Below, piece after piece: positions 1,028 to 20,197 of a DNA stretch of 24,000 nt. Within the stretch, counting starts at the first letter, position 1. Each line of letters begins with the position of its first letter. Origin of the DNA: Halofilum ochraceum (lineage in GTDB: Bacteria; Pseudomonadota; Gammaproteobacteria; XJ16; Halofilaceae); assembly GCF_001614315.2 (NCBI RefSeq), contig NZ_LVEG02000004.1, positions 506,668 through 530,667 of the forward strand, given 5' to 3'. Both the position numbers and the translations under genes were made by a program. Below the pieces are notes generated by a model. It made no database searches. It was not told the DNA's origin and saw nothing but the letters and a program-made list of their open reading frames with translations.

Positions 1028-1345
1028 TCAGGCGCTCAGGCGGCCGTCGAGATTGGCGAGGAAACGCTGCAGTTCGGCTTCATTGGACAGGTCCCCGTAC
1101 AGCACCGCGGGTTCTCCCCCGTCGCGGACGTGGACCAATGCCGGCGTCGCGAAGATCCCGTACTCGGTGATGCCCCCGGTGTCCTCGAGGAGGTCGACAT
1201 GGCGCACGGTGATATGGTCACTGGCGGTTTCTTCCACGGCTTTCGCCAGGTTGGCACGCGCGCGCAGTGAGCGCGGAGAATTACCCGTCACGAACAGAAC
1301 CAGGTCGGCGCTCGCACCGCTATCCCGATCGTTTCCCGGATTCAT
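1028..1345 (-). CDS. kaiB: KaiB (thioredoxin-like clock/timer protein)
   Basis: 105 aa with KaiB hallmarks: LVLFVTGNSPRSLRARANL, YGIFATPALV, LYGDLSNEAEL. Its ATG (1345..1343) overlaps the kaiC stop (1344..1342) as ATGA, implying translational coupling. Confidence 0.9.
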   Translation of the reverse strand: MNPGNDRDSGASADLVLFVTGNSPRSLRARANLAKAVEETASDHITVRHVDLLEDTGGITEYGIFATPALVHVRDGGEPAVLYGDLSNEAELQRFLANLDGRLSA

Positions 1346-6100: not shown

Positions 6101-7144
6101 GGTCGATCCATCTGGGCGGACGATACGGAACTCGAAATCGTGCCGGAGATTTTCGTCCCGCAGGCGAGTGCGCACGTCCAGCAGATGGGCGCGATCGTCA
6201 GGGTGCACGAGCTCCAGAAACGCCTCTGGCGTCGGTTCTCCCAGCGCGGGGTCGAGTCCCAGGATGCGGAAGGTCTCCTCCGACCACTCGAGGCGGTCTT
6301 CGTGGACCATGAGGCGCCAGCTGCCGATCTGCGCAATGCGCTGTGAGTCGATCAGCATCCGCTCGCGATCCTCCAGGGCCCGTTGTTGCGCCGCGATGCG
6401 GTCGTCGGCTGCGTCACGCTCGTCGAGCAGCCGGTTGAAGGCATCGGCGAGGCGCGAGAGTTCGTTGTCGCCACGACCGGCGGCGCGCAGGCCGGACTCC
6501 CCCGCGCGGATCCGGTCGATCGTGCTCGCCAACTCCTGTATGGGCCCACCCATGCGGCGATGGATCAGCCCGAATGCGGCCAGCGACAGTATTCCGAACG
6601 ACAGCGCCGCCGCGGCGAAGCTGCCGGCGATCCACATCGCATCGGTGGCGATACCCTGCTGGCGGTCGCGCAGCAGCTGATACAGGGCCGTGTCGAGTGC
6701 GACGCCGTGGCTGGCGACGCGGTCCATGAGGCTCCGCGCGCGCGGTGAGATATCCAGCGCTCCGGGGGCGTTCGACTCCGCCGGCTCCGTTACCGGTTCC
6801 GTCGCCAACGCGTTGGCATCCGCAAGCGCCTCGATCATCCGATCGATTTCCTGGGCGGCGGCCTGGGCCGCCGGGTATTCGTCGCCCATGGCGCGCAACT
6901 CCCTGCGAAGCGACGCCGCACGGGTGCGGAAAGCGCCATCGCTTTGCTGGTCGGCTCCGAGCAGGAGTTGGCGGTCACTCGCGGCGGACAGATCGTCGAG
7001 GCGTTTTTGCAGCTCGATCAGTTCGACGAGCTCGGCCTGCCTCGCTCGCATATCGTCATACGCGATCAGGCCGATCAGCAGCAGCGCGGCCAGGCCGGTT
7101 ACGCAGCCGGCAATACTGACATTGGATAGGCGCGCCAGTTTCAT
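3125..7144 (-). CDS. Membrane-anchored HAMP / 5xPAS / GGDEF / EAL c-di-GMP synthase-phosphodiesterase
   Basis: Longest ORF is 3125..7153 (1342 aa). I prefer ATG 7144 (MKLARL...) because GGGGGA lies ~8 nt upstream of it, whereas 7153 abuts that G-run. The protein has two TM segments flanking a ~140-aa helical periplasmic region, then a HAMP-like segment and five PAS-like cores (e.g. IGSWRL..EWSEETFRILG, LFCVIDSSHHYVLAN, FGGWWVDL..IHWSD, DAFFTLTPEWRFDYVN, AHIALLDADGTIRDVN). GGDEF motif RVGGDEFVVY is at 4190..4204. EAL motifs are EALLRW (3812..3820), EITE, DDFGTGYSS, KIDK, EGVE and QGF. Confidence 0.9.
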   Translation of the reverse strand: MKLARLSNVSIAGCVTGLAALLLIGLIAYDDMRARQAELVELIELQKRLDDLSAASDRQLLLGADQQSDGAFRTRAASLRRELRAMGDEYPAAQAAAQEIDRMIEALADANALATEPVTEPAESNAPGALDISPRARSLMDRVASHGVALDTALYQLLRDRQQGIATDAMWIAGSFAAAALSFGILSLAAFGLIHRRMGGPIQELASTIDRIRAGESGLRAAGRGDNELSRLADAFNRLLDERDAADDRIAAQQRALEDRERMLIDSQRIAQIGSWRLMVHEDRLEWSEETFRILGLDPALGEPTPEAFLELVHPDDRAHLLDVRTRLRDENLRHDFEFRIVRPDGSTRRVHELAETETDASGNTVALTGTIQDITEWHKVEQRLRQYHHLIESGSDLFCVIDSSHHYVLANDGYAALYGLTRESIEGLHLLDILSREFYDREVVPRLDRCLAGESLSFEGDRTYAHLGTRHFLIRYFPITASEGKGQNIGAVMTDLTDVRHAEETLREQAQLLDMAGRVARFGGWWVDLDSARIHWSDMVAEIHGMPAGYAPTVDEGLAFYAPEYREAMRARFTACAENGIAYDEEMQILDAHGQRVWVRVVAEPVHDLSGRIYCVQGAFQDISANKEADEELERINARLANVLESISDAFFTLTPEWRFDYVNSAAGDLLGRGHAELVGKHVWTEFPAAVGTPIEREYRRAMRERVTVALEEYYEPLEIWFDIRAYPTEEGLAVYFRDVTERRRMEEQLRNREEELRVSRDELAATLETRQMLINALPAHIALLDADGTIRDVNRQWRHFGMENANPDPETGVGQNYLRICDGATGDCADEAAEARTGLADVLNGERETFVLEYPCHAPDRARWFRMMANRLGGELVSGAVVMHVDITERKLAEQELNRLAYQDALTRLPSRNGFVQSLADRLWQLGWQPSAMIVMFDIQRHRDINDSHGYAVGDQLLRTVAERVNEMLGEDALAGRVGGDEFVVYLPEHPDLSAAELRAQIDALFDQPFELDGLQLDVTARFGYTLLGDEPRAHEELLREAELALFESTGSDNNNYWTAYTSAIDHEVRQRVEITQELRQALAGDEFQLHFQPKVRLDTGELIASEALLRWYHPEHGLRSPATFVTIAEQSQLIGPIGDWALNEACRHLREWQDAKLDIVRVAVNVSLVQFMVGDFPETVRSALQRHDVPPQALTLEITESVFERESENLNQQLRTLHDMGVRLSLDDFGTGYSSLLYLQRYPFDEIKIDKGFVRRMLEDPYSRQIVTTVLGVAGALNAEVVAEGVESAAERDALLGMGCRIGQGFYYSMPLESEDFRWLLEQRSHLPISHAGGAG

Positions 7145-7578
7145 GCAGGTCATCCCCCGTTACAGGGGGCACGCTCGACCCTTCGCTGCGCGGTCGTTGT
7201 CTGCCAGCAACGCGGCGGTTGGCGGGAGGTAGAGGACAATGACAGGACTCATGCGCTTCGTTGCTGGCAATGTATCGCGCAGGGCTGGTAGTGTCTATTT
7301 GCCACGCGACCCGTTCAGGGTTTATACCCACTCCCTTTGCGCGAGATCGCGCTGCGTGATCTGAAGAAACCGTAACTATGCCGCTCCGGTGTCGCCTGGT
7401 ATGCTTCAGCGTTCGGCGCTCGCATTCTGACATGCGCAGTGTGGATGCCGGCTTGTACCGGATCCATTGAGCAGAATCCGGGGCGTGTGCACTCGCCGTA
7501 AAGATCCTTCATCACGCTCAATCCGGACCATTACCGCTGGCCGCAGCGGATTCCAGCCTTGCGATGGAGTGTTGAACA

Positions 7579-8577
7579 ATGCTGCCGTGCCCACGCAGCC
7601 GGGGAGTGATTCGTTCGTCCAGCCCTCGGTGCCTTTCGGCCCTCATTGTCGCGACCATTGCCTTGACGCTCGGCGGCTGTGCATGGACGTCGGGCAGTCA
7701 GGCACTGACGGTCGACGAGTACCGCACGCTCGAGGAGCGCTGGGCCGACGAACGCGAGCGGCGGCTGAAGGCCCTGCTGGATGAGCGGATCGAGCCGCTA
7801 CTCGAACACGAGGAACGTCTCGGTACGCTCGAGCGGCGTTCGGAACGGATCCTGGTCGGACTGCGTGAACTCGAGGCGGCCCAGCGGCGCGCGAATCGGG
7901 AGGAGCGGGCCGATGACAGCGGAGGAGACGGCGATGAATCGAACGCGTCCGGGGACGACGGAAACAATGGCGCGGGCAGCGGCGAAGGCGAAGGCAAGGG
8001 CGAAGATGGCCCCGATCTGGAGCGCGATCCGAATGCGCTGACATCCGGTGAACCGCTGATTTTTGGTGCAAAGGAATGCATTGCACTGCCGGAACAGGAG
8101 CTCGTACTGCGCGCGCGGATCGATTCCGGTGCGAATACGGCCTCACTGGCCGCCGTCGATATCGAACAGTTCGAGCGCGACGGCGATCCCTGGGTTCGCT
8201 TTCGGATTCCGCGCGCCGGTTCAGGTGACGAGGCCGCGTCCGGCGCGGAGGATGGCGCCGGTGAGGATGAGGACGTATTCGAAGAAGTCATGGATGCGGT
8301 CGAGTCCGCGGCCGAGGCCGAGAATGAAGAGGAGGTGGGCGTGCGGGTCGAGGCCGAGGTCCAGCGCCGGGTCACCATCATCCAGGCGTCAGGGGAAGAT
8401 GAACGTCCGGTGATACGCCTGCCGACGCGGATCGGTCCGCTCGAACGACGGGTCGAGTACACGCTCGCCGATCGCGGACATTTGACCTACGGAGTCCTGC
8501 TCGGGCGGCGCTTTCTGCAGGATCTCGCCGTGATCGATGTGGCCCGCGAGTACGTTCAGCCTTGTCCGCCGCGCTGA
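7579..8577 (+). CDS. Retropepsin-like aspartic peptidase family protein (DUF785/COG4067, RimB-like), predicted lipoprotein with acidic inserts
   Basis: 332 aa. Signal peptide plus lipobox LTLGG-C (Cys34, 7678..7680). Family core: ECIALPE..LRARIDSGANTASL (D-S-G at 8122..8130), FERDGDPWVRF, LADRGHLTYGVLLGRRFL. Two D/E/G-rich low-complexity inserts lie at ~7909..8028 and ~8212..8334. GGAG lies 10 nt before the ATG. Confidence 0.75.
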   Translation: MLPCPRSRGVIRSSSPRCLSALIVATIALTLGGCAWTSGSQALTVDEYRTLEERWADERERRLKALLDERIEPLLEHEERLGTLERRSERILVGLRELEAAQRRANREERADDSGGDGDESNASGDDGNNGAGSGEGEGKGEDGPDLERDPNALTSGEPLIFGAKECIALPEQELVLRARIDSGANTASLAAVDIEQFERDGDPWVRFRIPRAGSGDEAASGAEDGAGEDEDVFEEVMDAVESAAEAENEEEVGVRVEAEVQRRVTIIQASGEDERPVIRLPTRIGPLERRVEYTLADRGHLTYGVLLGRRFLQDLAVIDVAREYVQPCPPR

Positions 8578-8587
8578 GTGATCGGGC

Positions 8588-10114
8588 ATGCGCGTACCGA
8601 CACTGATCCTGGTCGCACTTGGACTCATCGCGTCGGGTCTGGGTCACAGCGTCTATCGCCATATCGAGCAGGGCGTTCCGCTGCTGCCAGGGGCGAGCGA
8701 GACCTTCTGGGATGTCGAGGCGCGCGTGCGCCTGGAGGCGGAGGAAGGACCGGTCCGCGTACGCCTGGCGGTGCCGGACGATCCGCCGGGTTTTGCCCTG
8801 CGCAGTGAGCACACCGCATCGCCGGGGTACGGGCTGCAGTTCCTCGATGATGGGCAACGGCGTGCCGAATGGACAACGCGGGAGACCGAGGGGCTGCAGG
8901 TCCTCTATTACCGCGCCCAGTTCCGGGCGGTCGAGGGTGAATCCGGCGGGCCGCCGGCACGGAAAGATCCGGAGAAACCCGCCTCCACCGGGACCGTGTC
9001 TTCGTGGCGACCGGCCTTGCAGATTGCCGCCAATGAACTCCTCGCGTCCGCCTACGCCGCCTCGGTCGACGCCTTCAGTCTGGCGGCGGCACTGAGTCGA
9101 CGCCTGCAGGATAACGGCAATCAGAACGCCCGCCTCTTGCTGAGCGAAGCGGATCCGCCGGATGCGCTCGTGCGCCTGTTGGCGCAGGCGGATGTTCCGG
9201 CTCGTGTGGTCCAGGCGCTCGAACTCGAGGATGGTCGGCGTCGGCAGGATCTGCGCTCCATCGTGCGCGTGTTTGGTGACGGCGGCTCGCGGTTGTTTGA
9301 CCCGGTCGCGGGCGGTCGGGCGGATACCAGTCGGCTGCTGCTGTGGGAAGGCAGTGGTGGCCCGGTCCTCGAGGTCGAGGGCGGGCAGGACTCGGACGTC
9401 AGCTTCTCGATTCTCGAGACCCGTCGCCCCGCGGCCGTGGTCGCTCGCGACGAGGGCATCAGCGAAGGTCTGTTCAACCTCTCGATCTACAGCCTGCCCA
9501 TCTCCGAGCAGACCATCTTCAAAAGCATCCTGCTGCTGCCGTTGGGTGCACTGGTCGTCGTGTTCTTCCGGGTGTTCGTCGGTCTGCAGACCTCGGGGAC
9601 CTTTATGCCGGTACTCATCGCGCTGGCGTTCATCAAGATGTCCCTGCTGACCGGTCTCGTGACGTTCCTGCTGGTGATCGGCGGTGGCCTGGTGCTCCGC
9701 CAGGCGCTGGCCCATCTCAATCTGCTGCTCGTCGCGCGCGTGTCCGTGGTCATCGTCTGTGTCATCGGGCTGGTCGCGCTGCTGTCCGTGCTCAGCTTCC
9801 ATCTCGGGTTCGCTGATGCCCTGCAGATGCCCTTTTTCCCGATGATCATCATCGCGTGGACGATCGAGCGGTTGTCGATCCTCTGGGAAGAAGAGGGTGC
9901 GCACGAGGTGTTTATCCAGGGCGGCGGCAGTCTGATTACGGCGATCGCCGCGTATCTGGTGATGCAGCAGCCCTGGGTGCAGTATTGGATGTTCAACTTC
10001 CTTGGCCTGCAGCTCGTGGTGCTCGCCCTGATCATCCTCGTCGGCAGCTATACCGGCTATCGCCTGAGCGAGATGTGGCGGTTCCGCACTTTCTGGAAAC
10101 GCGCTGATGCCTGA
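8588..10114 (+). CDS. Inactive transglutaminase-like domain fused to 7 TM helices (7TM-transglut family membrane protein)
   Basis: 508 aa: an N-terminal TM, a ~290-aa extracytoplasmic domain, then ~7 hydrophobic helices (from LLLPLGALVVVFF to LQLVVLALIILVG) with the GTFMPVLIALAF-type motif I associate with this family. The only Cys in the whole protein is inside a TM helix, so a Cys-His-Asp transglutaminase triad is impossible. Starts 10 nt after the upstream stop and overlaps the downstream gene by 8 nt. Confidence 0.7.
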   Translation: MRVPTLILVALGLIASGLGHSVYRHIEQGVPLLPGASETFWDVEARVRLEAEEGPVRVRLAVPDDPPGFALRSEHTASPGYGLQFLDDGQRRAEWTTRETEGLQVLYYRAQFRAVEGESGGPPARKDPEKPASTGTVSSWRPALQIAANELLASAYAASVDAFSLAAALSRRLQDNGNQNARLLLSEADPPDALVRLLAQADVPARVVQALELEDGRRRQDLRSIVRVFGDGGSRLFDPVAGGRADTSRLLLWEGSGGPVLEVEGGQDSDVSFSILETRRPAAVVARDEGISEGLFNLSIYSLPISEQTIFKSILLLPLGALVVVFFRVFVGLQTSGTFMPVLIALAFIKMSLLTGLVTFLLVIGGGLVLRQALAHLNLLLVARVSVVIVCVIGLVALLSVLSFHLGFADALQMPFFPMIIIAWTIERLSILWEEEGAHEVFIQGGGSLITAIAAYLVMQQPWVQYWMFNFLGLQLVVLALIILVGSYTGYRLSEMWRFRTFWKRADA

Positions 10115-11087
10115 ATGGTCGCGGCGGCTGCGCGAGCAGGGCGTGGTGGGCCTGAACGAGCGCAATCTCGAGTACATCAACCGCGCCAATGGCCGTCGGC
10201 ACTTCCCGCTTGTCGACGACAAGCTGCGGACGAAACGCCTCGCGCAACGTTACGGCGTCGCCGTGCCGGAACTGCTGGGTGTCATCCGTGGCAATCACGA
10301 GGTCCGCCGCCTCGAACAGATCATCCCCGGCGATCGCGGTTTTGCGATCAAACCGGCCCGGGGCAGCGGCGGCAAGGGCATCCTCGTGATCGCGTCCCAC
10401 GGTGATGGCTGGTTCCGGAAAGGGTCAGGGGAATGGCTGCCGCGCCGCCGCGTCGTGCGGTACCTGTCCAACCTGCTCGCCGGTCTGTATACGCTCGGGG
10501 GGACGCCCGATGTGGCCATGGTGGAGGCCCTGGTCGAGATCGAACCGGAATTCGCGGCGTTCAGTCATGCCGGGGTCCCGGACATCCGTATCGTCGTGTA
10601 CCAGGGCTATCCGGTGATGGCCATGATGCGCCTGTCCACGGCGGCTTCCGATGGCAAGGCCAACCTGCATCAGAATGCCATCGGTGTGGGTCTGGATATT
10701 GCCCGTGGCGAGCCGGTGCATGCCGTGCAGAAGAACCGACGCGTAAGCCATCATCCGGACACGGGGCAGCGGCTCGATGAACTGCGGATCAGCGACTGGG
10801 AGGCCATGCTCATACAGGCGGCAAACTGTTTCGAGATGACCGGACTCGGCTTCCTCGGCGCGGATATGGTGCTCGACCGCCGGCACGGGCCCTTACTGCT
10901 CGAGTTGAATGCGCGCCCCGGGCTATCCATCCAGCTGGCGAACGGTATCGGGCTCGCTCCGCGGCTGCAGTGTATTCGTGATCGTGAGGCCGAGCGCGTA
11001 GAGGCGGACCGCCCTGTCTACACAGCGCAGGAACGCGTCGCCTTCGCGCGCGCCCGGTTCACGGGCACGAACGACGTCCTTCCCTGA
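10107..11087 (+). CDS. RimK-related ATP-grasp enzyme (alpha-L-glutamate ligase-like protein, TIGR02291-type)
   Basis: 326 aa. N-terminal GLNERNLEYINRAN..FPLVDDKL.TK signature, ATP-grasp nucleotide loop FAIKPARGSGGKGILVI, and later GADMVLD...LLLELNARPGL. Overlaps the 7TM gene by 8 nt (ATG 10107, upstream stop 10112..10114). Confidence 0.8.
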   Translation: MPEWSRRLREQGVVGLNERNLEYINRANGRRHFPLVDDKLRTKRLAQRYGVAVPELLGVIRGNHEVRRLEQIIPGDRGFAIKPARGSGGKGILVIASHGDGWFRKGSGEWLPRRRVVRYLSNLLAGLYTLGGTPDVAMVEALVEIEPEFAAFSHAGVPDIRIVVYQGYPVMAMMRLSTAASDGKANLHQNAIGVGLDIARGEPVHAVQKNRRVSHHPDTGQRLDELRISDWEAMLIQAANCFEMTGLGFLGADMVLDRRHGPLLLELNARPGLSIQLANGIGLAPRLQCIRDREAERVEADRPVYTAQERVAFARARFTGTNDVLP

Positions 11088-11128
11088 CGGTTTCAGGTCT
11101 GTCTTTGGGCCACCGGGACCGTTCAGGA

Positions 11129-12205
11129 TCACATGCTGAACGGCATGGCCATCCGCAGTGAAACGTCCGGTGCATCGTCCGTCAGACCGAAACCGACGTT
11201 CGTGGTCAGTGAGCGGTCGGGTCCGAGGTTGAGCGTAGCGCCGAGATTCAGGACGGACGAGACGGAATCACTCCCCGTAATCTCCTGGCTGGCCTGCCCC
11301 TCCAGTTTCTGCTCCGTCGGCGACGTGAATTTCTGGTCGAGAGAAAATGACAGGCTCAGGTCGCGATTCAGCGCGAATGCCGTTCCCAGCCCGAAGCGGA
11401 AGCTGTCACCGAGGTCGATTTCACCTGGCTGATCACCACTCTGTGCCGAGATATCGTCGAACTCTTCCTTCAGGCGCACGTCGGCGCCGAAACTGGCGAA
11501 CACGATGGCCGGGTCATAGGTCTTGAGTATCGAGGCGCCAAGCGAAACGGTCCAGACGCCGTTCCCCGTCGGCAATTCCTCGGGGAAAGTCAACAACCCA
11601 TCGCCGCGGCTCGCGGTCGGGATTCCGAACGGATCGGTCCCGGTCGGTGCGGTCACGCCCAGGTTGAGGACGACATCCGGTTGGTTCTGTGTTTCGTCAA
11701 GCCAGCGATAGAACAGGCGCATACGCGTGTCCCCGATATCGTCATCGCTGACCGTTTCTTCCAGCGTAAGATCACCTTCCTGATTTGTCGATTCGTAGTT
11801 GGCCTGACGGAAGACGTATGGCACCGCGAGCTGGAACTGGAATCGATCGGTCAGGTCGTAGCGCATCGCCACTTCCGGCTGGATGGTATCGCGCGCGATT
11901 CGATCAACGCTGATATTGCCGAGGAAAATCGCGTCCAGTGCCAGAAAACCGGAAAGCGTCAGTTGATTGCGGTCGGAGTGTGTCCAGGTGATGCTCGGCT
12001 CGATCGTGAGGTCCTCGCCGAACAGCGCGTGCTGCTCACGGTATACGTCGCGGACCGAGGATTCGGGTTCCGCCTCTTCCTCGGTCGGTGCGGCGCTACC
12101 GGAGGCGGAAGGTTCCCCCCCGGAATCGGATTCCTGGGCGGATGCACCGGCAAATGGCAGTGTGAGCGTGAGCGTCAGGATGGATGCTGCGACGGTGCGT
12201 TCCAT
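11129..12205 (-). CDS. fapF: Outer-membrane beta-barrel protein in the FapF position (amyloid secretion pore candidate)
   Basis: 358 aa. Signal peptide ...PFAGASA|QE, an acidic disordered N-terminus, then alternating beta-strand-like segments through to a C-terminal ...MAMPFSM. GGGAGA SD lies 6 nt before the ATG. It is the last gene of the fap-like operon. The symbol is assigned mainly by synteny. Confidence 0.6.
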   Translation of the reverse strand: MERTVAASILTLTLTLPFAGASAQESDSGGEPSASGSAAPTEEEAEPESSVRDVYREQHALFGEDLTIEPSITWTHSDRNQLTLSGFLALDAIFLGNISVDRIARDTIQPEVAMRYDLTDRFQFQLAVPYVFRQANYESTNQEGDLTLEETVSDDDIGDTRMRLFYRWLDETQNQPDVVLNLGVTAPTGTDPFGIPTASRGDGLLTFPEELPTGNGVWTVSLGASILKTYDPAIVFASFGADVRLKEEFDDISAQSGDQPGEIDLGDSFRFGLGTAFALNRDLSLSFSLDQKFTSPTEQKLEGQASQEITGSDSVSSVLNLGATLNLGPDRSLTTNVGFGLTDDAPDVSLRMAMPFSM

Positions 12206-12248
12206 GGATCGTCTCCCGTCCGGTTTGCATGTGTCCGCACGACGTAAA

Positions 12249-12299
12249 GGCGCGCCCGCGCGCGGGCGCGCCCCGTGATATCTCCGGGGGAAACCCCGG
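12249..12299 (-). promoter_or_regulatory. Two consecutive GC-rich hairpins between fapE and fapF (intra-operon attenuator/stabiliser candidate)
   Basis: Read on the minus strand, CCGGGG-tttc-CCCCGG (12284..12299) follows the fapE stop directly. Next comes a perfect 24-nt palindrome GGCGCGCCCGCG/CGCGGGCGCGCC (12249..12272) followed by TTTACG. Confidence 0.5.
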
Positions 12300-13127
12300 T
12301 CAGCGCAGCGTCTCGATCGAGTCGAGCGCCTGGCGTATCGACGCGGTATTGCCTGACAATTCCTCCTGCAGTTCCACGCGGAGCCGGGCGATACTGCTGG
12401 CCCGGTTGAGTTCGCCGCTGAGCTGGATCAGCTGTTTGACGCCCTGGCCGGAAACGACGCGTTGCGAGACGCGGCCGCTGCCGGGGATATCGAGCGCCAG
12501 GTTCATGCCGTGCTCGCCTGCGGATATCTCGACACTCGATCCGTTGGTGCCATGGAGCGCGACATCGGTATTGTTCGCGTCCGAGCCGGAAGCGGGGTGG
12601 TCCATGTGCTCGACGACGTCGATCCGCATGTCGTTGACGCCGCTGTTGGCGTCCCCGGCGACCTGAACGCGTTGCACGATCCCGTTCCCGTTGTTGTTGC
12701 CGTTGCCGGGACTGCGATTACCCGACTCCCCGGGAGTGACCGAGCCACCACCGTTTTTAGCCGGATGGGTGCCGTCGGGTTTCGAGTCTGATGGGTTTTT
12801 GATCGCCATGGTCGGGGTGAACTCCACCTTCGGCTCCGACGAACTCATATCGACGCGGAAGTCGACACCGCCACGTACAATTTCACCTGTTTCCGATTGT
12901 ATTTGACTCGCCATTCGCAGGCCAAAACGGACGACCTTGCCGCCCTGGACGAAGCGCCCGCGCTGGTTGGCGAGTTCATGCTCCGGGACCACCTGTGCCG
13001 CGTCCAGGGTTGGTGTTGCCGGCCGTTCCCCCTCGGGGGCAGCGACGGCCGCCTGGACTGAGCATGCCGCGACGATCAGCAGGGCGCCCCTTGCGGTTCC
13101 CCGATTACTGAGTTTTCGCCATTGCAT
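12300..13127 (-). CDS. fapE: Secreted protein in the FapE position, carrying two FapB-like repeat segments
   Basis: The ORF extends to 13169. The internal ATG 13127 has GGAGA 7 nt upstream and starts a signal peptide (MQWRKLSNRGTARGALLIVAACSVQAAVA|AP). It contains a G/N/S/P-rich central region plus GIVQRVQVAGDANSGVNDMRIDVV (12612..12683) and GVKQLIQLSGELNRASSIARLRV (12375..12443). The symbol is assigned by synteny and repeat similarity. Confidence 0.55.
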   Translation of the reverse strand: MQWRKLSNRGTARGALLIVAACSVQAAVAAPEGERPATPTLDAAQVVPEHELANQRGRFVQGGKVVRFGLRMASQIQSETGEIVRGGVDFRVDMSSSEPKVEFTPTMAIKNPSDSKPDGTHPAKNGGGSVTPGESGNRSPGNGNNNGNGIVQRVQVAGDANSGVNDMRIDVVEHMDHPASGSDANNTDVALHGTNGSSVEISAGEHGMNLALDIPGSGRVSQRVVSGQGVKQLIQLSGELNRASSIARLRVELQEELSGNTASIRQALDSIETLR

Positions 13128-13174
13128 CACCGATTCTCCGAAATTCTGTGACAGCGCCCGTGACTCCACCGTTC

Positions 13175-13969
13175 TCAGAAGATCTCCGTGTGCCGGATGC
13201 CGAAGCCGATCGTCTGGGCCTCGGGCACCGGTGCATAGATATCGTGGAGGCGGCGGGCGGAGAGTGTTCGCCTGGGTTTCAGCAGAGCCGTATCCTCATC
13301 GAATCCCGGCCCGATCACCGCGAAAACGATGCCGTTCCAGGCGTCAACAAAATCCTCCAGCGCCATGGTGCGGTTCCCGAGCGCCGGATCACCCACGAAT
13401 ACACGCTCGCCCTCGACCTGGCGAACGACGACGAAATGCCGGTAGCCCTCGATGTCGACGAGGGCGATGGTCGGGATCTTGATGTCGCCCAGGGTATCGG
13501 CCGCTACGCGATAGCCGCGCCCGCGCATGCCAATGCCCTCGACGAAATTCTTGAGATCGAGCAGTGAAAATCCCTGCTTGCGGACCTTCTCGCGGTCCGC
13601 GACTTGGAACAGTCCTTTGAGGATGCGTTTTTCCGTGGCCCCGTTCCGATCGTATGCGTAACGCAGGATGGTCGCGAGTGCCGCGGCCCCGCAGGAGAAG
13701 TCGGTCTGCTGCTCGACCAGCTGCGCATACTTGCGCTCGCGCATCGATTCCACTTCCTTGTCGGCCAGGTCCCCGACGGGGAGATTGCCCCCCATCGGGA
13801 CCCGGGCTGTATGGCCCGTCAGTGGCCAGGACAGCAGGAGCGCCACAAGCCCGCAGCAGGCGAGGATCGTTCCCCACCGCGCGGGCCTGCCGGCGCGTCC
13901 CGCGAAAACAGGCTCGACCCGGCCGCCCGAAGGCGACCGGGCCGAGGTTGGCAGGGTTGCCGTTTTCAT
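13175..13969 (-). CDS. fapD: Periplasmic C39-family cysteine peptidase (FapD)
   Basis: The ORF extends to 14023, but ATG 13969 (GGAAG upstream) precedes a hydrophobic anchor (WGTILACCGLVALLLSW). C39 motifs: QQTDFSCGAAALATIL (catalytic Cys), GYRHFVVVRQV (His), VFVGDPALG (Asp). It holds the fourth position of the operon, as fapD does. Confidence 0.8.
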   Translation of the reverse strand: MKTATLPTSARSPSGGRVEPVFAGRAGRPARWGTILACCGLVALLLSWPLTGHTARVPMGGNLPVGDLADKEVESMRERKYAQLVEQQTDFSCGAAALATILRYAYDRNGATEKRILKGLFQVADREKVRKQGFSLLDLKNFVEGIGMRGRGYRVAADTLGDIKIPTIALVDIEGYRHFVVVRQVEGERVFVGDPALGNRTMALEDFVDAWNGIVFAVIGPGFDEDTALLKPRRTLSARRLHDIYAPVPEAQTIGFGIRHTEIF

Positions 13970-13985
13970 GACGGCTTCCCGAACC

Positions 13986-14005
13986 CGTGGTATCCGGCTA
14001 CCACG
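13986..14005 (-). other. Small stem-loop immediately 3' of the fapC stop
   Basis: CGTGGTA-tccggc-TACCACG (plus-strand reading): 7-bp stem, 6-nt loop, starting 1 nt after the fapC stop codon (14007..14009). No U-tract. Confidence 0.3.
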
Positions 14006-14006
14006 A

Positions 14007-15149
14007 TCACTCTCCGCCTCCATTCCCTTCGGGCCCGACGGACACGACCGACAGGCTGTTGGACTGGAGGTTGTTGGTGCCGGAGGCCACGTTCACGCCG
14101 ATATTGCCGGTGGCGCCGCGCAGGGCATTGCCATCGATCGACGCGTTGTTGGTGGTGCGACGGTCACGCTCGAGATGGGCATAGCCCATCGACACGCTTG
14201 CCGTACCGGACAGTTCGATGTCACCGGCTTCCTCGAACTCGAAGGCGCCATCCTCGTCCAGCGGTGCGTTGTCCTCGTCGCTGGAGTTCGTCTGGGTCTC
14301 AGAGTCGAAGTCGGAATGGCCGAGTGAAGGAGCCGGCGCATTGGGATGCTGGTTCTCATCCCCGAACTCCGGATTGTGATCCCAGTTGTCGGGGTAGACG
14401 TTGTTGCTCTGATCCACGTCGCCCTCGTAGGAGCCTGAGACCCCGCTTTCGGGACCGCCCATGTCGATCTCGGCGGTGAGCTGCTCGAACTCGAGGTCAT
14501 AGCTGGGGCTGTTCACGGTTTCGTTGCCCCCGACCGACTGCCGGGTGCTCACGCCGGCCTCAGCCATGCTGTCGGCACCGGTGGTGGCCGCGAAATTGTT
14601 CTGCTGGCTGTTGCTGTTGCCGGCCGTCACGTTGACCCCGATGTTGCCGGTTGCATCCTGCAGCGCATTGCCGCCGAGGTTCGCCGAGTTCCGGGCACCG
14701 ATATTGGCGGTGCGGTTACCGCCGGTGGTCTGCTTGGAGAACGCCTCGGCGTCCCCATGGCCGAAGACGAAGTCGGCATCGGCCGCGGCCAGCGCCGCCG
14801 CGTTCGACTGGCTGTTGTTGTCGCCGGCCGCCGCGTTGGCGCCGAGGTTGCCGCTGCCTTCGCGCATGGCGTTGTCGTCCACCGAGGCCGAATTGTTGTT
14901 GGCCTTGTTGAGGACTTCATTACCGCCGTTGTCCTGGCGGTTCTCGATCACCGCCATGCCGAGGGCATCGCCGTCGATGTAGCCGCCGACACTGACCTCA
15001 CCTTCATAATCGATTTCCTTTTCGGTATCGGTCTCCTTGTCCATTTCGACGGAACTGTCGCTTTCGTAGCCCTCAGCCATTGCAGCGGGTGCAGCAATCA
15101 CCGCGGCCACCGCGATTGCAAGTGCGGATTTTTCGAAACGATTAGTCAT
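14007..15149 (-). CDS. fapC: Major functional-amyloid subunit FapC (R1-L1-R2-L2-R3 architecture)
   Basis: 380 aa. Signal peptide ...AAPAAMA|EG. Three imperfect repeats share N-[AS]-x-[LIV]-x-x-N-A-[LM]-x-x-x-[ST]-G-N-[IL]-G-[VA]-N-[VA]-x-[AS]-G-x-x-N-x-Q-x-N. GGGGAGA SD precedes the ATG. The protein is N/Q/G/S/D/E-rich and has no Cys. Confidence 0.85.
   Translation of the reverse strand: MTNRFEKSALAIAVAAVIAAPAAMAEGYESDSSVEMDKETDTEKEIDYEGEVSVGGYIDGDALGMAVIENRQDNGGNEVLNKANNNSASVDDNAMREGSGNLGANAAAGDNNSQSNAAALAAADADFVFGHGDAEAFSKQTTGGNRTANIGARNSANLGGNALQDATGNIGVNVTAGNSNSQQNNFAATTGADSMAEAGVSTRQSVGGNETVNSPSYDLEFEQLTAEIDMGGPESGVSGSYEGDVDQSNNVYPDNWDHNPEFGDENQHPNAPAPSLGHSDFDSETQTNSSDEDNAPLDEDGAFEFEEAGDIELSGTASVSMGYAHLERDRRTTNNASIDGNALRGATGNIGVNVASGTNNLQSNSLSVVSVGPEGNGGGE
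14040..14156 (-). repeat. FapC repeat R3 (protein level)
   Basis: aa 332-370: TTNNASIDGNALRGATGNIGVNVASGTNNLQSNSLSVVS. It is separated from R2 by a 141-aa highly acidic linker (14157..14579). Confidence 0.85.
14580..14696 (-). repeat. FapC repeat R2 (protein level)
   Basis: aa 152-190: ARNSANLGGNALQDATGNIGVNVTAGNSNSQQNNFAATT. Confidence 0.85.
14781..14900 (-). repeat. FapC repeat R1 (protein level)
   Basis: aa 84-123: NNNSASVDDNAMREGSGNLGANAAAGDNNSQSNAAALAAA. Confidence 0.8.
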
Positions 15150-15170
15150 CGCTCTGTCTCCCCTTGGTTG

Positions 15171-15809
15171 TCATGGCTCGATCGCACTGTCTACATGCAG
15201 TTCGAACCGGTTGCTCGTGGCGTTGCCACTACCTGCGGCCTGGTTTACCTGAATGACGCCGCTGGCGCCGGCGAAAGCGCTCGGATCGATCTCCGCCGTT
15301 TCCGCCGACTCCTCGCCGCGTCCATCGGGACCCGGCCGAGTCTGTTGTGCCGTACCGACGGCGGCCAGATCGGCCTCACCGAGTTGCTCGCCGTCGATAC
15401 CGACATTGATCGTGAGGGCATTGCCCTGGGCGTTTGCCTGGCCGGCGCTCTGATTGACGGCGATCCAGCCGCTCGCCCCGCTGAATGCGCCCGCCCCGAT
15501 CCGGGCCCGCGCCGCGCCATTGTCCGTGGCCCCTGACGCCGTCCGTTGGCGGATCACGGCGCGCCCGGGGGTCTGCGCCCCGATCGCGATCGCGCCGGCG
15601 TTGGCCTGTACGTTCGCGTTGCCCGCGGTCTGGTTGACCTGGACCGCGCCGTTGACGTCGCCCAGCGCACGATCCTCGATCACGCTCTGCGCCACGCTGC
15701 CCGGGATCGGCTCCTCGCTGGCGGCGGTGCCGGGGACACCGAGCAGCAGGGCCGCGGCGGCCAGCGACCACAGTGCGCGTTCGAGACCGGTGTACGGATT
15801 GCGTTCCAT
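15171..15809 (-). CDS. fapB: Minor amyloid subunit / nucleator FapB (three repeats, short linkers)
   Basis: The ORF extends to 15905, but ATG 15809 lies 1 nt after the fapA stop (15811..15813) and begins a signal peptide (..LWSLAAAALLLGVPGTAAS|EE). Three repeats: IEDRALGDVNGAVQVNQTAGNANVQANAGAIAIG (15579..15680), RIGAGAFSGASGWIAVNQSAGQANAQGNALTINVG (15399..15503), EIDPSAFAGASGVIQVNQAAGSGNATSNRFELHV (15192..15293). Confidence 0.8.
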   Translation of the reverse strand: MERNPYTGLERALWSLAAAALLLGVPGTAASEEPIPGSVAQSVIEDRALGDVNGAVQVNQTAGNANVQANAGAIAIGAQTPGRAVIRQRTASGATDNGAARARIGAGAFSGASGWIAVNQSAGQANAQGNALTINVGIDGEQLGEADLAAVGTAQQTRPGPDGRGEESAETAEIDPSAFAGASGVIQVNQAAGSGNATSNRFELHVDSAIEP

Positions 15810-15810
15810 G

Positions 15811-16179
15811 TCAGTGCCCCAGCTGCAGTGTGTGAGTCTGGCGGTTGCCAGCGCCGTCGCTGTGGTTGCGCCGCCGGGTCGATTGCGTCGGCGAGCCACG
15901 CTCATCCCAGAGCGTCACGCCGGTACGCTGGTTCCCGCCGACGGGGGTGTTGCCCTCGGCGTTGCGGGCGCGGATGCCCGCCAGCGCACGGTCATCCAGC
16001 GTTGCCGCCGGCAGACCCGCATCGCCGGCAGCCACGGTCGCCGCGATCTGCTGCGCATCCGCGGACCATGCGGTCGCCGGTGCGGTCAGGACGAACAGCA
16101 GCGCGAGAAGCGCGGCGGTCAGACCGCGGGTATGGCGTCCTTGCCGTTTCCGCTTTTGCTCGACCAAAAGTGATTGCAT
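15811..16179 (-). CDS. fapA: Small secreted protein in the FapA position (putative amyloid chaperone/regulator)
   Basis: 122 aa. Signal peptide ..LLFVLTAPATAWS|AD. The mature part is low-complexity and likely disordered, and includes LDDRALAGI, which resembles the lead-in of FapB R1 (IEDRALGDV). No obvious SD. It is the first gene after the sigma-54 promoter. The symbol is assigned by synteny. Confidence 0.5.
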   Translation of the reverse strand: MQSLLVEQKRKRQGRHTRGLTAALLALLFVLTAPATAWSADAQQIAATVAAGDAGLPAATLDDRALAGIRARNAEGNTPVGGNQRTGVTLWDERGSPTQSTRRRNHSDGAGNRQTHTLQLGH

Positions 16180-16222
16180 GGCAGTCGTATTGCGCCGGTA
16201 AGCCGTTGTTGCCGACCGTGTC

Positions 16223-16237
16223 GCAAACGCCGTGCCA
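16223..16237 (-). promoter_or_regulatory. Sigma-54 (RpoN) -24/-12 promoter of the fap operon
   Basis: The minus strand reads TGGCAC-GGCGT-TTGC, an exact match to the TGGCAC-N5-TTGC consensus with correct GG/GC spacing. It ends 43 nt upstream of the fapA ATG (16179), and a sigma-54 EBP gene lies immediately upstream. Confidence 0.75.
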
Positions 16238-16242
16238 CTACG

Positions 16243-16312
16243 TAAATCCCTGTTTTATGGGGGTATTATTCAGGCCGGGTGCAGGTATGTGTCACGCTGG
16301 CGAGACAGCGTG
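16243..16312 (-). promoter_or_regulatory. Candidate upstream control region: AT-rich IHF-like site plus 7-bp inverted repeat
   Basis: An AT-rich patch is unusual for this window. On the minus strand AAACAGGGATTTA (16243..16255) matches the IHF consensus WATCARNNNNTTR with one mismatch. CACGCTG-gcgaga-CAGCGTG (16293..16312) is a possible EBP site. Spacing to the -24 element is shorter than for classic UAS. Confidence 0.3.
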
Positions 16313-16401
16313 GGGCGGGGAGGGCGGCAGATGCGGTCGTGGGGCCCGTATGTGGCCGTTTCGTCGATCGTCACACGGATGCGACAGGCGGAGGCGGGCG
16401 T

Positions 16402-17766
16402 TCAGGCTTCGCTGGTGTCGCGCAATCCGTAGCGGTCCATGAGCCGGTACAGGGTCATGCGGGACACGTCGAGTTCCTGGGCGGCCTCCGTCACGCACTG
16501 CCGATTGCGGATCAGCGCGGCATGGATCGCCTCCCGCTCGGCATTTTCACGGACTTCTTCCAGGCTTCTAGCCCGGCGCCAGTGGCCGCGACGCTCCAGA
16601 CCCAGGTCCTCCGGCTGCAGCAACCGGCCCTCGGCCATGACCATGCCGCGCCGCATCCGGTTGATCAGTTCGCGGACATTGCCGGGCCAGTCATAGTGGC
16701 GCATGACGTGCAGCGCATTACGGCTGATCCCGCTCAGCGACGGGGCGCTTTCGGTCTGGAAACGGTCGAAGAAAAACCGGGCCAGCACCTCGATGTCGTC
16801 GGGCCGCTCGCGCAGTGGCGGGATTTCCAGCTGGAGGACATTGAGCCGGTGAAACAGGTCTTCACGGAAGTCCCCCGCCGCGACCGCGTCCGCGATATCC
16901 ACATTGGTGGCCGCGAGGATCCGGACATCAACGGAGACATCGTGCGAACTCCCGACCCGCTGGATGACGCCGGACTGCAGAAAGCGCAGCAGGTTCGCCT
17001 GCAGATTCAACGGGAGATCGCCGATCTCGTCGAGCAGGAGCGTGCCACCGGACGCGGCCTCGATCCTGCCCTCGTGGCGTTCGATCGCGCCGGTAAAGGC
17101 GCCTTTTTCATGGCCGAACAGTTCGGACTGGATCAACTCCGTCGGCAGGGCACCACAATTGACGGCAATGAACGGCCCCTCAGCACGGGGCGAACGCTCG
17201 TGAATGGCGTGGGCGGCCAGTTCCTTGCCGGTACCGGATTCGCCATGAATCAGCACCGGTGCATCGACCCGGGCGGTTTTCCGTATCTGTCCGAACAGTT
17301 TCATCATCGCCGGCGTCGTGCCGACCATCTCGGATTCATCCGTGTCCTGCGGGATGTCTTCGTCCGATTCCTTTGCGGCTGTCTTTTGCCGCAGTGCCGA
17401 GAGTCCAGCAGCGTGGCGCAGAAGCGTGTCGAGCGAGTCGGGGTCGGGGGGAAGCGGGTGATGCGCGAACAGGCAGTCCGCAACGGAACCCGTGAGGAGT
17501 TCCTCGGGATTCCTCCTGCCCGGGACGAGTGCGATCCATTCCCTGCGGCTGTTCCCGAGTATCGCCTCGATTTGACGACTATCCGGCGGCGATGCGCCGT
17601 CGAGGGCGATCACGCCCGGAGCCGTGTCCGACCCCGGCATCGGTGGCAGCGGTTCTCCGATCTCGCGATGAATCACCGGAGACCAGCCGCGTGCCTCCAT
17701 GTTCATGATCAGATCATCTATCGGGCCCGTCCGCGGGCCCCGAACAACCAAGCGCGCCACATCCAT
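16402..17766 (-). CDS. Sigma-54-dependent Fis-family transcriptional activator (bEBP) with an atypical receiver-like N-domain
   Basis: The ORF extends to 17841. ATG 17766 has a strong GGGGAGG SD 6 nt upstream. AAA+ core: VLIHGESGTGKELAA (Walker A), GHEKGAFTGA (GAFTGA sigma-54 contact loop), GGTLLLDEIGDLP (Walker B), RLNVLQLEIPPLRER. C-terminal Fis-type HTH: TEAAQELDVSRMTLYRLM. The N-terminal ~130 aa are REC-like but lack the N-terminal acidic pair. Confidence 0.9.
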   Translation of the reverse strand: MDVARLVVRGPRTGPIDDLIMNMEARGWSPVIHREIGEPLPPMPGSDTAPGVIALDGASPPDSRQIEAILGNSRREWIALVPGRRNPEELLTGSVADCLFAHHPLPPDPDSLDTLLRHAAGLSALRQKTAAKESDEDIPQDTDESEMVGTTPAMMKLFGQIRKTARVDAPVLIHGESGTGKELAAHAIHERSPRAEGPFIAVNCGALPTELIQSELFGHEKGAFTGAIERHEGRIEAASGGTLLLDEIGDLPLNLQANLLRFLQSGVIQRVGSSHDVSVDVRILAATNVDIADAVAAGDFREDLFHRLNVLQLEIPPLRERPDDIEVLARFFFDRFQTESAPSLSGISRNALHVMRHYDWPGNVRELINRMRRGMVMAEGRLLQPEDLGLERRGHWRRARSLEEVRENAEREAIHAALIRNRQCVTEAAQELDVSRMTLYRLMDRYGLRDTSEA

Positions 17767-18038
17767 CGCGTGCCTCCCCTGTGCATGCGCAGGCGCTGAA
17801 ATCGAAGTAGTCGACGGCCCGCGCCCGACCGGCATGGCCATTCGCGGGCTCCGCTCATTGTCATGAAGTCACGGGTGAGCGCCGACTGCTTATTAAAGGT
17901 GTAGTACCTAACCCAAAGTGAGGTCAATATTTCGCACTGCCGACGGTTCGGCTTGGCGGAAATTCACGTGGAGTGGGGATGCAGCCCGGATAGGGGAACC
18001 GGGTCCGAAAACAGGTGGGCTGACTGGAAAGGGGCGGG

Positions 18039-18072
18039 GCGTACGGTGCCCGGGGGACCGGGCACCGTACGC
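18039..18072 (-). terminator. Strong hairpin downstream of proW (likely proVW terminator)
   Basis: Perfect 15-bp inverted repeat GCGTACGGTGCCCGG / CCGGGCACCGTACGC with a 4-nt loop, 23 nt after the proW stop. On the minus strand it is followed by CCCGCCCCTTTCC, so the U-tract is poor. Confidence 0.5.
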
Positions 18073-18094
18073 TCGCCACAACGGTACTGGCGGA

Positions 18095-19015
18095 TCAGCT
18101 GGACGCGGCCGTCTTCTTGCCGGAACCGCTGAACATCGCCTTGAGGTAGTGGAACAGCGGGCTGCCGCTGGCTCCAGCCTGACCGAAGGTCTGCGTGATC
18201 CGGTCGAGCAGGATCGCAATCAGCACCACGCCAAGACCGCCCTCGAACCCGAGGCCGACGTTCAGGCGCTGAATACCCGTCAGGACCACGTTGCCGAGAC
18301 CGCCCGCACCGATCATCGAGGCGATGACGACCATCGACAGCGACAGCATGATGGTCTGGTTCACGCCCTGCATGATGGTGGGCATCGCCAGAGGCAGCTG
18401 TACCTTGGTCAGGAGCTGGCGCGGCGTGCAGCCGAACGCGAGGCCGGCCTCGATGTTCTCCTCATGCACCTGGCGGATGCCGAGATTCGTGAGGCGCACG
18501 GCCGGCGGCATGGCGAACACCACCGTCGCGATCGTGCCGGGTACCTTCCCGAGGCCGAAGAAGATTGCGGCCGGGATCAGGTACACGAATGGCGGCATGG
18601 TCTGCATGAAGTCCAGCACCGGCCGTACGAGCATCTCGACCTTGTCGTTGCGGGCCATCGCGATGCCGAGCGGCCCGCCGATCAACAGTGCGACGAAACT
18701 GGCACTGAGTACGATCGCCACCGTCGACATGGTCTCCGGCCACAGCGTCATCTCGAAGAACAGGATCATCGCGACGATGCAGAATATTCCGAAGCCCCAG
18801 CCGACGCGCAGAAAGCCGAGAATGATGATCGCTGCCGCCATCACCAATGGATGCACCCAAAGCATGAAGCCTTCGAGGTTGGCCACGACGAAGTCGATGG
18901 CGGCGGAGATGCCGTCGAGCAGGCCGCCGAGATTGTTCTGGATCCAGTCGACGAGGTCTTCGACGTACTGTCCCAGATCGATATTGAGGAATTGATAGTT
19001 CTCTGGATCAGCCAT
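18095..19015 (-). CDS. proW: Glycine betaine/proline-betaine ABC transporter permease ProW
   Basis: 306 aa. ProW-type N-terminal extension (LGQYVEDLVDWIQNNLGGLLDGIS), multiple TM helices, and an EAA-like loop EAGLAFGCTPRQLLTKVQLPLAMPTIM. Starts 6 nt after the proV stop. Confidence 0.9.
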   Translation of the reverse strand: MADPENYQFLNIDLGQYVEDLVDWIQNNLGGLLDGISAAIDFVVANLEGFMLWVHPLVMAAAIIILGFLRVGWGFGIFCIVAMILFFEMTLWPETMSTVAIVLSASFVALLIGGPLGIAMARNDKVEMLVRPVLDFMQTMPPFVYLIPAAIFFGLGKVPGTIATVVFAMPPAVRLTNLGIRQVHEENIEAGLAFGCTPRQLLTKVQLPLAMPTIMQGVNQTIMLSLSMVVIASMIGAGGLGNVVLTGIQRLNVGLGFEGGLGVVLIAILLDRITQTFGQAGASGSPLFHYLKAMFSGSGKKTAASS

Positions 19016-19021
19016 GATGAA

Positions 19022-20197
<1,176 letters not shown>

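Follow-up and report, generated by a model that had tools for sequence, protein, structure and literature searches.

A predicted sigma-54 control region between a BrfA-type activator gene and a diverged fap amyloid operon in Halofilum ochraceum

Fap amyloids rank among the main structural constituents of Pseudomonas biofilms. We analyzed a 24,000-nucleotide stretch of the Halofilum ochraceum genome (contig NZ_LVEG02000004.1, positions 506,668 to 530,667; G+C content, 65%), hereinafter called the window, in which a fap operon is preceded on the same strand by a gene for a sigma-54 enhancer-binding protein (EBP). The EBP gene and the operon's first gene are separated by a spacer of 222 bp. The genes are as follows (all positions are those of the window).

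16402..17766, minus strand: gene for a BrfA-type sigma-54 EBP, 454 residues (Pfam Sigma54_activat, 1.4e-68; AAA_lid_14; HTH_8)
15811..16179, minus strand: the gene that opens the operon (fapA position), 122 residues, with a hydrophobic, signal-peptide-like N terminus (read by eye)
15171..15809, minus strand: fapB (NCBIfam FapB, 1.5e-26), with the start placed by reference to the 211-residue gene of locus L001
14007..15149, minus strand: fapC (NCBIfam FapC, 3.9e-56)
13175..14023, minus strand: fapD, a C39 peptidase gene (NCBIfam FapD, 1.3e-77)
12300..13169, minus strand: fapE (NCBIfam FapE, 2.9e-29)
11129..12205, minus strand: fapF, an outer-membrane channel gene (NCBIfam FapF, 5.8e-95)

The genes fapB to fapF stand in canonical order, and the Fap models are their best NCBIfam matches, yet all of the scores are below the equivalog cutoffs, which were trained on Pseudomonas. 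The FapF protein also matches the FapF structure from Pseudomonas sp. UK4 (PDB 5o65; 2.7e-76). Judged by these matches, the fap operon of the window is diverged and not of Pseudomonas, and a preliminary description of the same DNA was right in calling it an amyloid operon. That description also named the first gene fapA. The gene is indeed the first after the promoter, but the name is positional only. For its product there was no NCBIfam or Pfam match, and similarity to Pseudomonas FapA was undetectable (BLASTP E value, 22). An iterative hidden Markov model (HMM) search connected it solely with the opening genes of 16 fap loci (Halomonadaceae, Methylotenera, and related ones), without reaching the first genes of Pseudomonas. 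Neither search supports the gene as a homolog of Pseudomonas fapA. The closest named relatives of the Fap proteins and the EBP are from Halomonadaceae (approximately 50 to 57% identity).

For comparison, a FapF alignment (i.e., the window, L001, Halomonas elongata, and UK4) was scanned against one genome per GTDB species (185,579 representatives), which returned 80 fap loci (designated with L numbers) from Halomonas, Aeromonas, Shewanella, Vibrio, Amphritea, Methylotenera, Methylophaga, Pseudomonas, and others. The highest FapF identity in this set of loci was 50% (Halomonadaceae). The order of an EBP gene followed by fapA to fapF is common to the window, L001 (a JGI metagenome contig; EBP identity, 84%), and H. 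elongata (L002/L003; 55%).

The spacer contains the following features, with distances counted from a +1 position set 12 nt downstream of the C in the promoter GC dinucleotide (approximately 16211).

16369..16386, minus strand: putative distal upstream activator site, dyad TGTCGCATCCGTGTGACG, centered at approximately -166.5
16290..16307, minus strand: putative proximal upstream activator site, TGTCTCGCCAGCGTGACA, a TGT-N12-ACA dyad centered at approximately -87.5
16293..16312, minus strand: inverted repeat CACGCTG-N6-CAGCGTG with 7-bp arms, overlapping the proximal dyad with an offset of approximately 4 nt
16243..16255, minus strand: AT-rich core resembling a site for integration host factor (IHF), AAACAGGGATTTA, at -44 to -32, with two mismatches to WATCAANNNNTTR
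16223..16237, minus strand: sigma-54 -24/-12 element, TGGCACGGCGTTTGC, kept in L001, L088, and L085
16210..16212, minus strand: predicted transcription start, from standard sigma-54 geometry (11 to 13 nt downstream of the GC)

The element TGGCACGGCGTTTGC is the sole exact match to TGGCAC-N5-TTGC on both strands of the window. Its GG and GC dinucleotides are exactly 10 bp apart, its strand is correct for the fap operon, and the ATG at 16179 lies 43 nt from the C of its GC. The perfect motif reported in the preliminary description (16237..16223, 43 nt before fapA) was therefore confirmed in its coordinates. Dinucleotide-preserving shuffles of the window contained a mean of 0.04 exact matches, with any match in 4 of 100 shuffles. 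When one mismatch was tolerated, the window contained three matches, an unremarkable number, so that the exact motif by itself is just suggestive. No second sigma-54 motif (one mismatch or fewer) was found in promoter position in the window. The leader RNA predicted from sigma-54 geometry would be approximately 32 nt long. A sigma-70 promoter scan of 16100..18150 revealed no promoter-like site, and the spacer has no hexamer pair. An Rfam scan of the entire window, spacer included, returned no match, and a riboswitch or leader RNA thus does not account for the spacer.

When the spacer was aligned with those of relatives at 84%, 84%, 68%, and 61% EBP identity, just four blocks were kept (i.e., the two dyads, the AT-rich patch, and the -24/-12 element), and the remainder had diverged. 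Both dyads are 18 bp long. The proximal dyad TGTCTCGCCAGCGTGACA is the best dyad match in the window, and conserved dyads are confined there to the spacer between the EBP gene and the fapA position. Upstream activator sites had been proposed in the preliminary description together with a 7-bp inverted repeat. Such upstream dyads do recur across loci (see below), but the second copy at 16386..16369 had been overlooked. The inverted repeat is present as described (16312..16293); it is found in the window and L088 and is lost in L001, L085, and L086, while the offset TGT-N12-ACA dyad is kept. We therefore rejected the repeat as an operator, and the conserved element is the overlapping dyad.

The AT-rich patch is part of a tract (-65 to -28) that is AT rich across fap loci. 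Between -80 and -28, 20 of 66 loci contain a perfect WATCAANNNNTTR (0.5% of composition-matched shuffles), and 41 of the 66 contain a match with one mismatch or fewer (approximately 10% of shuffles). The window core AAACAGGGATTTA begins at -44, which is the offset of the perfect IHF cores in L008, L014, L021, and L023. From its position, a binding site for IHF or a similar bending protein is plausible in the window.

The EBP has the three-part organization of sigma-54 activators.

17362..17766, minus strand: N-terminal receiver (REC)-like domain of the VpsR/BrfA type, residues ~1 to 135 (custom HMM and AlphaFold model)
16828..17328, minus strand: AAA+ sigma-54 interaction domain (PF00158, 1.4e-68; PDB matches)
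16429..16551, minus strand: Fis-type helix-turn-helix (Pfam HTH_8, 31.7 bits)

Walker A (GESGTGKE; 17244..17221, residues 175 to 182), the GAFTGA loop (17103..17086, residues 222 to 227), and Walker B (LLLDEIG; 17040..17020, residues 243 to 249) are present, and the GAFTGA loop is intact. The upstream, same-strand EBP of the preliminary description was thus verified in all of its motifs and domains (i.e., GAFTGA, Walker A/B, and the Fis-type helix-turn-helix). The longest open reading frame (ORF) for the EBP extends to 17841; relatives at 84% identity are 454 residues long and align from residue 1, making the ATG at 17766 the likely start. The database copy produced by a gene caller (P0001) has 434 residues and starts at 17706, 20 codons downstream of 17766, and this annotated start is probably too short. 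In PDB, the EBP sequence matched ZraR (1.8e-80) and also NifA, NtrC1, and FleQ. All of its NCBIfam matches are below the cutoffs, and a curated BrfA family model does not exist.

The window EBP is 47% identical over 396 residues (E value, 2e-107) to a 441-residue EBP from Pseudomonas fluorescens PS918 (L078), in an alignment that spans window residues 61 to 449 and thus part of the N-terminal domain. The L078 gene is convergent with fapF, and its product has exactly the length of BrfA (441 residues); we took it as the BrfA ortholog by length and position, so that the comparison is with this protein and not with BrfA of strain PF07 itself. In the N-terminal domain of the window EBP, beta-1 (LVVRGPRT) is not followed by an acidic pocket, and a Pro-rich loop stands in place of helix 2. 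A Pfam search with the isolated domain gave no family match. Most of the EBP homologs bear the Pfam VpsR N-terminal domain (PF20161), including the L078 BrfA ortholog (36.9 bits) and the fap-linked EBP of H. elongata (36.2 bits). An HMM built from the N termini of 67 other locus-encoded EBPs matched the window domain with 54 bits (E value, 1e-18). In the AlphaFold model (mean predicted local distance difference test score, 80.7), residues 4 to 135 form a receiver-like beta-alpha fold, and the full model aligned over approximately 395 columns with REC plus AAA+ structures (i.e., NtrC1, NtrX, FleQ, LuxO, and VpsR). The profile and the model support homology of the window domain to the N-terminal domains of fap-linked EBPs, BrfA orthologs included.

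EBP linkage was scored by tblastn with the window proteins over 83 distinct loci, window included. A homologous EBP (43 to 57% identity) adjoins fap in 68 of these loci, from more than 15 genera, in four arrangements.

EBP upstream, same strand: 23 loci, window included
EBP upstream, divergent: 5 loci, all Aeromonas
EBP downstream, convergent: 37 loci, mainly Pseudomonas
EBP downstream, same strand: 3 loci, Vibrio and Amphritea

Eleven loci are without an EBP, six of which are cut by a contig end. Adjacency was left unscored at four more loci from Methylotenera and another Methylophilaceae member (L019, L042, L050, and L054), in which fapF is detached from fapB to fapE. An EBP homolog lies approximately 8 kb downstream of the lone fapF in L019, L042, and L054, and none was found in L050. 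Split fap operons have been described for some genera (Dueholm 2013, PMC3792158). Of 76 EBPs extracted from fap loci, 70 have an intact GAFTGA motif, and three more have GSFTGA.

The upstream regions of fap, which the preliminary description had proposed to compare across genomes, contain more -24/-12 elements than expected from the loci's own background. An element of this kind precedes the first fap gene at most loci. The match was exact at 16 of 79 loci against an expectation of 1.4, and it had one mismatch or fewer at 38 of 79 against an expectation of 8.4; the Pseudomonas loci mostly have the weaker YGGCAC-N5-YTGC. In the other loci, the promoters were chosen by a motif search of the 1.6 kb upstream of the FapB match, a choice that is partly circular. 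The dyad played no part in the selection. The clustering of dyads and IHF cores relative to the chosen promoters is independent of the motif-based choice, and that of the dyads independently supports both features.

An exact TGT-N12-ACA centered between -80 and -108 was found in 46 of 66 fap loci, for which the background rate predicts approximately 0.45 loci. Binned over 65 loci (expectation, 0.06 per bin), exact dyads were counted in 34 cases at approximately -100, in 9 at approximately -88, and in approximately 20 at -180, with further sites at -192 and -252. The center of the proximal dyad is -87.5/-88.5 for the window, for L001, and for the majority of Halomonas loci, and Pseudomonas has it at -98.5/-99.5. 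The shift of 11 bp between the Halomonas type and the Pseudomonas type amounts to one helical turn, which would be expected of an activator that must bind on one particular face of the DNA. Three dyads (approximately -98.5, -178.5, and -252.5) are usual in Pseudomonas loci, and distal dyads at -178, -192, or -252 recur in other genera. In Aeromonas and Shewanella, an inner-palindrome variant (GTCTCA-N4-TGAGAC) occupies the position of the proximal dyad. The combination of a -24/-12 element, an IHF-like tract, and phased dyads was found in Halomonas, Aeromonas, Shewanella, Vibrio, Pseudomonas, and others. By these sequence comparisons, the regulatory module is conserved across fap loci and is not a product of chance.

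Components of this module have been characterized in P. fluorescens. A 2018 review described the fap operon as encoding no regulators and its regulation as unexplored (PMC6173800). In 2021, down-regulation of fapA to fapF was reported for an rpoN mutant of P. fluorescens PF07 (Liu 2021, PMC8202526), and the fapA transcription start of P. fluorescens PF07 was then mapped to a -24/-12 promoter by 5' rapid amplification of cDNA ends (Guo 2022, PMC9207406). In the latter study, fap transcription fell and the matrix was abolished when brfA was deleted. This gene of 1,326 bp, which is located downstream of fapF on the opposite strand, encodes an RpoN-dependent regulator of the Fis family (PMC9207406). 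BrfA is described as an EBP that has fapA as a direct target and senses cyclic di-GMP (c-di-GMP; Guo 2024, Microbiol Res 287:127864, as cited in PMC13101488), and c-di-GMP promotes BrfA-dependent fap expression (Ru 2026, PMC13101488). The RpoN/BrfA circuit is already known in P. fluorescens, and the window locus is a further example of a known arrangement. The preliminary description, in which the arrangement was thought to be undescribed for the Pseudomonas fap operons, was mistaken on this point, given the publications of 2021 to 2024 (PMC8202526, PMC9207406, and Guo 2024 as cited in PMC13101488). A literature search returned no relevant work on how fap is regulated in bacteria other than Pseudomonas.

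Several neighboring genes and paralogs were also recorded. At 3125..7153 (minus strand), approximately 4 kb beyond fapF, a gene encodes a 1,342-residue HAMP-PAS-PAS-GGDEF-EAL protein, of a type that makes or degrades c-di-GMP, which could feed the c-di-GMP input proposed for the activator; it is adjoined by a gene for a 574-residue KaiC-like double ATPase (1342..3066, minus strand). Three genes at 7579..11087 (plus strand), for a RimB-like zinc protease, an inactive-transglutaminase/seven-transmembrane protein, and a sugar-transfer ATP-grasp enzyme, are convergent with fapF, and the same convergent trio is present in the 84% relative (L001, 12866..15555). Two ORFs opposite the EBP and ABC-transporter genes (16279..17799, plus strand, 506 residues; 17918..19858, plus strand, 646 residues) had no family matches and are most likely shadow ORFs of 65% G+C sequence.

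The best named database match of the window EBP (P0006; 54% identity) adjoins a different, fap-like cluster. In Litchfieldella qijiaojingensis (L004), the region beside this homolog (7196..16356) holds genes for a VpsT-like regulator, a second VpsR-like EBP, a FapF-like protein (27% identity), and a C39 peptidase, and it may represent a separate Fap-related fiber system. Three extra VpsR-like paralogs have GAFTDA (i.e., L004_1, 10964..12142; L008_1, 3730..4917; and L014_1, 3934..5046). By analogy with Vibrio cholerae VpsR, these paralogs beside fap or fap-like clusters may be sigma-54 independent.

In our view, the 222-bp spacer very probably constitutes an entire sigma-54-dependent control region on which the neighboring activator acts. 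The cis elements and protein motifs that enhancer-dependent sigma-54 activation requires are all in place, and they co-vary with fap from genus to genus. From the established biology of bacterial EBPs, dimers of the activator would occupy both dyads and assemble into a hexameric ATPase ring. Bending at the AT-rich tract would deliver the ring to the RpoN holoenzyme, bound as a closed complex at the -24/-12 element; the GAFTGA loops would contact sigma-54, ATP hydrolysis would open the promoter near 16211, and the genes from the fapA position through fapF would then be transcribed. The preliminary description had arrived at the same kind of mechanism (i.e., a sigma-54 promoter, an adjacent GAFTGA activator, and upstream sites), and the recurrence of these components at fixed positions across genera speaks for it. 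Taken as a whole, an explanation in which an RpoN promoter, a BrfA-type EBP, dyads, and DNA bending drive the fap operon appears likely to be correct. For the activating input, which is the least certain step, the homology with BrfA suggests, with roughly even chances, that c-di-GMP acts on the activator, rather than phosphorylation.

Several observations weigh against parts of this explanation. The IHF-like patch at 16255..16243 shares its offset with the perfect cores of relatives, but its own match is at chance level, the two-mismatch fit of AAACAGGGATTTA to WATCAANNNNTTR being no better than that of composition-matched shuffles. The scan of 16100..18150 found no intrinsic terminator between the EBP stop codon and the fapA-position gene (the only two terminator-like matches are on the wrong strand, within the EBP gene), and read-through from the EBP gene could therefore give RpoN-independent basal expression, so that dependence on RpoN and this activator may be less strict than the preliminary description had it. 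The N-terminal domains of the window and L001 EBPs had no match to PF20161 at an E value of 1 or less. The window EBP scored 326 to 340 bits against BrfA orthologs and 274 bits against E. coli-type ZraR in PDB, a moderate margin. The argument for BrfA orthology comes mainly from synteny and the shared operators, and membership in a VpsR-like subfamily would be an alternative. The c-di-GMP contacts of FleQ, in the 2016 work of Matsuyama, are said to be R144 (the Arg of the LFRS motif), R185, and N186 (the Arg-Asn after Walker A). In a by-eye alignment, these positions are S, H, and A in the window EBP (DESEMVG and KELAAHAIH), and a FleQ-type c-di-GMP pocket was accordingly rejected. With these residues absent, family membership is what the c-di-GMP step draws on.

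The same promoter and activator could respond to another input, such as phosphorylation of the receiver-like domain by an unlinked kinase or binding of another ligand or partner protein. We regard this as possible but rather doubtful. The receiver phosphoacceptor position is Asp in the window EBP (GVIALDG) and Arg or Leu in Pseudomonas BrfA, which would suit phosphorylation, whereas the acidic pocket after beta-1 is missing, and no histidine kinase gene lies beside the activator in the window, L001, or L002. Likewise, the missing FleQ-type c-di-GMP residues and a domain too diverged for a Pfam VpsR match favor another input, but this domain is homologous to those of other fap-linked EBPs, BrfA orthologs among them, and the GGDEF-EAL gene 4 kb from fapF is circumstantial evidence on the side of c-di-GMP.

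Two further explanations concern the promoter and the target of the activator. Transcription of fap might depend mainly on read-through from the activator gene, or on an unrecognized sigma-70 or alternative-sigma promoter, with the -24/-12 element playing no major part; the lack of a terminator after the EBP gene would allow this, and a single exact motif arises by chance in approximately 4% of shuffled windows. This is very improbable, since the position and sequence of the motif are kept over dozens of loci, the spacer lacks a sigma-70-like hexamer pair, and the P. fluorescens experiments favor RpoN dependence (PMC9207406). Moreover, the EBP is downstream or divergent in some motif-bearing loci, and read-through is impossible at those loci. 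We give equally little credence to the explanation that the EBP mainly serves another target (e.g., the ABC transporter genes that lie upstream, or loci elsewhere at a distance) and adjoins fap incidentally. Linkage to fap persists through four gene arrangements, the conserved dyads of the window are found in the EBP-fapA spacer only, and no second sigma-54 motif with one mismatch or fewer stands at a promoter position; in favor of that explanation, Halomonadaceae hold several paralogs of the window EBP family, and P0006, the best named match (54%), adjoins a different, fap-like cluster.

Returning to the sigma-54 module, we lean toward the view that a BrfA-type activator, a sigma-54 promoter, an IHF tract, and phased dyads constitute an ancestral, near-universal Fap module and not a Pseudomonas peculiarity. 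If so, the module would span Gamma- and Betaproteobacteria (i.e., Halomonadaceae, Aeromonas, Shewanella, Vibrio, Methylophilaceae, and Pseudomonadaceae), and the regulator would in effect be a seventh core fap gene, relocated at least four times with its operator geometry kept. The GAFTDA paralogs of Halomonadaceae would then mark steps toward VpsR-like sigma-70 regulators. A cross-genus module exceeds what the accessible papers state and merits a short comparative note. The window locus presents an RpoN/BrfA-type circuit in a distant, high-GC, non-Pseudomonas lineage, in the simpler order of regulator, promoter, and operon. It also leads to a testable operator model for many genera, with TGT-N12-ACA at -88 or -99 and near -170/-180 and an IHF core at approximately -44. 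Such a model would be useful for annotation, for predicting amyloid deployment by environmental bacteria, and for fap expression systems. These findings refine the current picture of fap regulation and do not alter it.

The architecture of the spacer resembles that of nifH-type promoters. At Klebsiella pneumoniae nifH, which is of the NifA/NtrC type, a dyad upstream activator site is separated from the -24 element by an IHF bend, and the NifA site is TGT-N10-ACA. The fap loci share with such promoters the dyads approximately 80 to 170 bp upstream, a putative IHF-type bend, and the outer TGT...ACA triplets; they differ in the triplet spacing (12 in fap dyads versus 10), in the regulator family, and in the controlled function, which is an extracellular amyloid. 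FleQ of Pseudomonas aeruginosa is, like the window EBP, a sigma-54 activator with a degenerate receiver, and the AAA+ domains are 46 to 50% identical in structure-based alignments, although R144, R185, and N186 of FleQ are not conserved in the window EBP. FleQ controls flagellar and Pel/Psl genes, and its ATPase is inhibited by c-di-GMP. BrfA-dependent fap expression, in contrast, is promoted by c-di-GMP (PMC13101488).

V. cholerae VpsR (PDB 7v2b) shares the REC-like/AAA+/helix-turn-helix layout and is a c-di-GMP-dependent regulator of biofilm matrix (PMC6158489). Its N-terminal domain family, PF20161, is found in most homologs of the window EBP, and the sequence protected by VpsR, AGTCTTAGAATTGATGCA, is similar to the fap dyad. 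However, VpsR works with sigma-70 RNA polymerase at promoters without -24/-12 elements and has altered sigma-54-contact and ATPase residues (PMC6158489), whereas the window EBP retains GAFTGA and Walker A/B and its target promoter is a canonical sigma-54 promoter. With its intact GAFTGA and Walker motifs and a perfect -24/-12 target, the window EBP does not fit the VpsR-type, sigma-70-dependent class.

The BrfA-RpoN system of P. fluorescens PF07 and SBW25 is alike in having a -24/-12 promoter before the first fap gene, TGT-N12-ACA dyads upstream of that promoter, and a dedicated, fap-linked GAFTGA EBP with a VpsR-type receiver-like N-terminal domain and a Fis-type helix-turn-helix (47% identity). 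The window differs in its host, which is not Pseudomonas, in its more diverged N-terminal domain, and in its first gene, which is not recognizably fapA. The gene order is also different: in Pseudomonas, brfA is downstream of fapF and on the strand opposite to it, whereas the window EBP gene lies directly upstream of the fapA position and is co-oriented with it. The window promoter is a perfect TGGCAC-N5-TTGC, compared with YGGCAC-N5-YTGC in most Pseudomonas loci, and its proximal dyad, at approximately -88 versus approximately -99 in Pseudomonas, is one helical turn closer.

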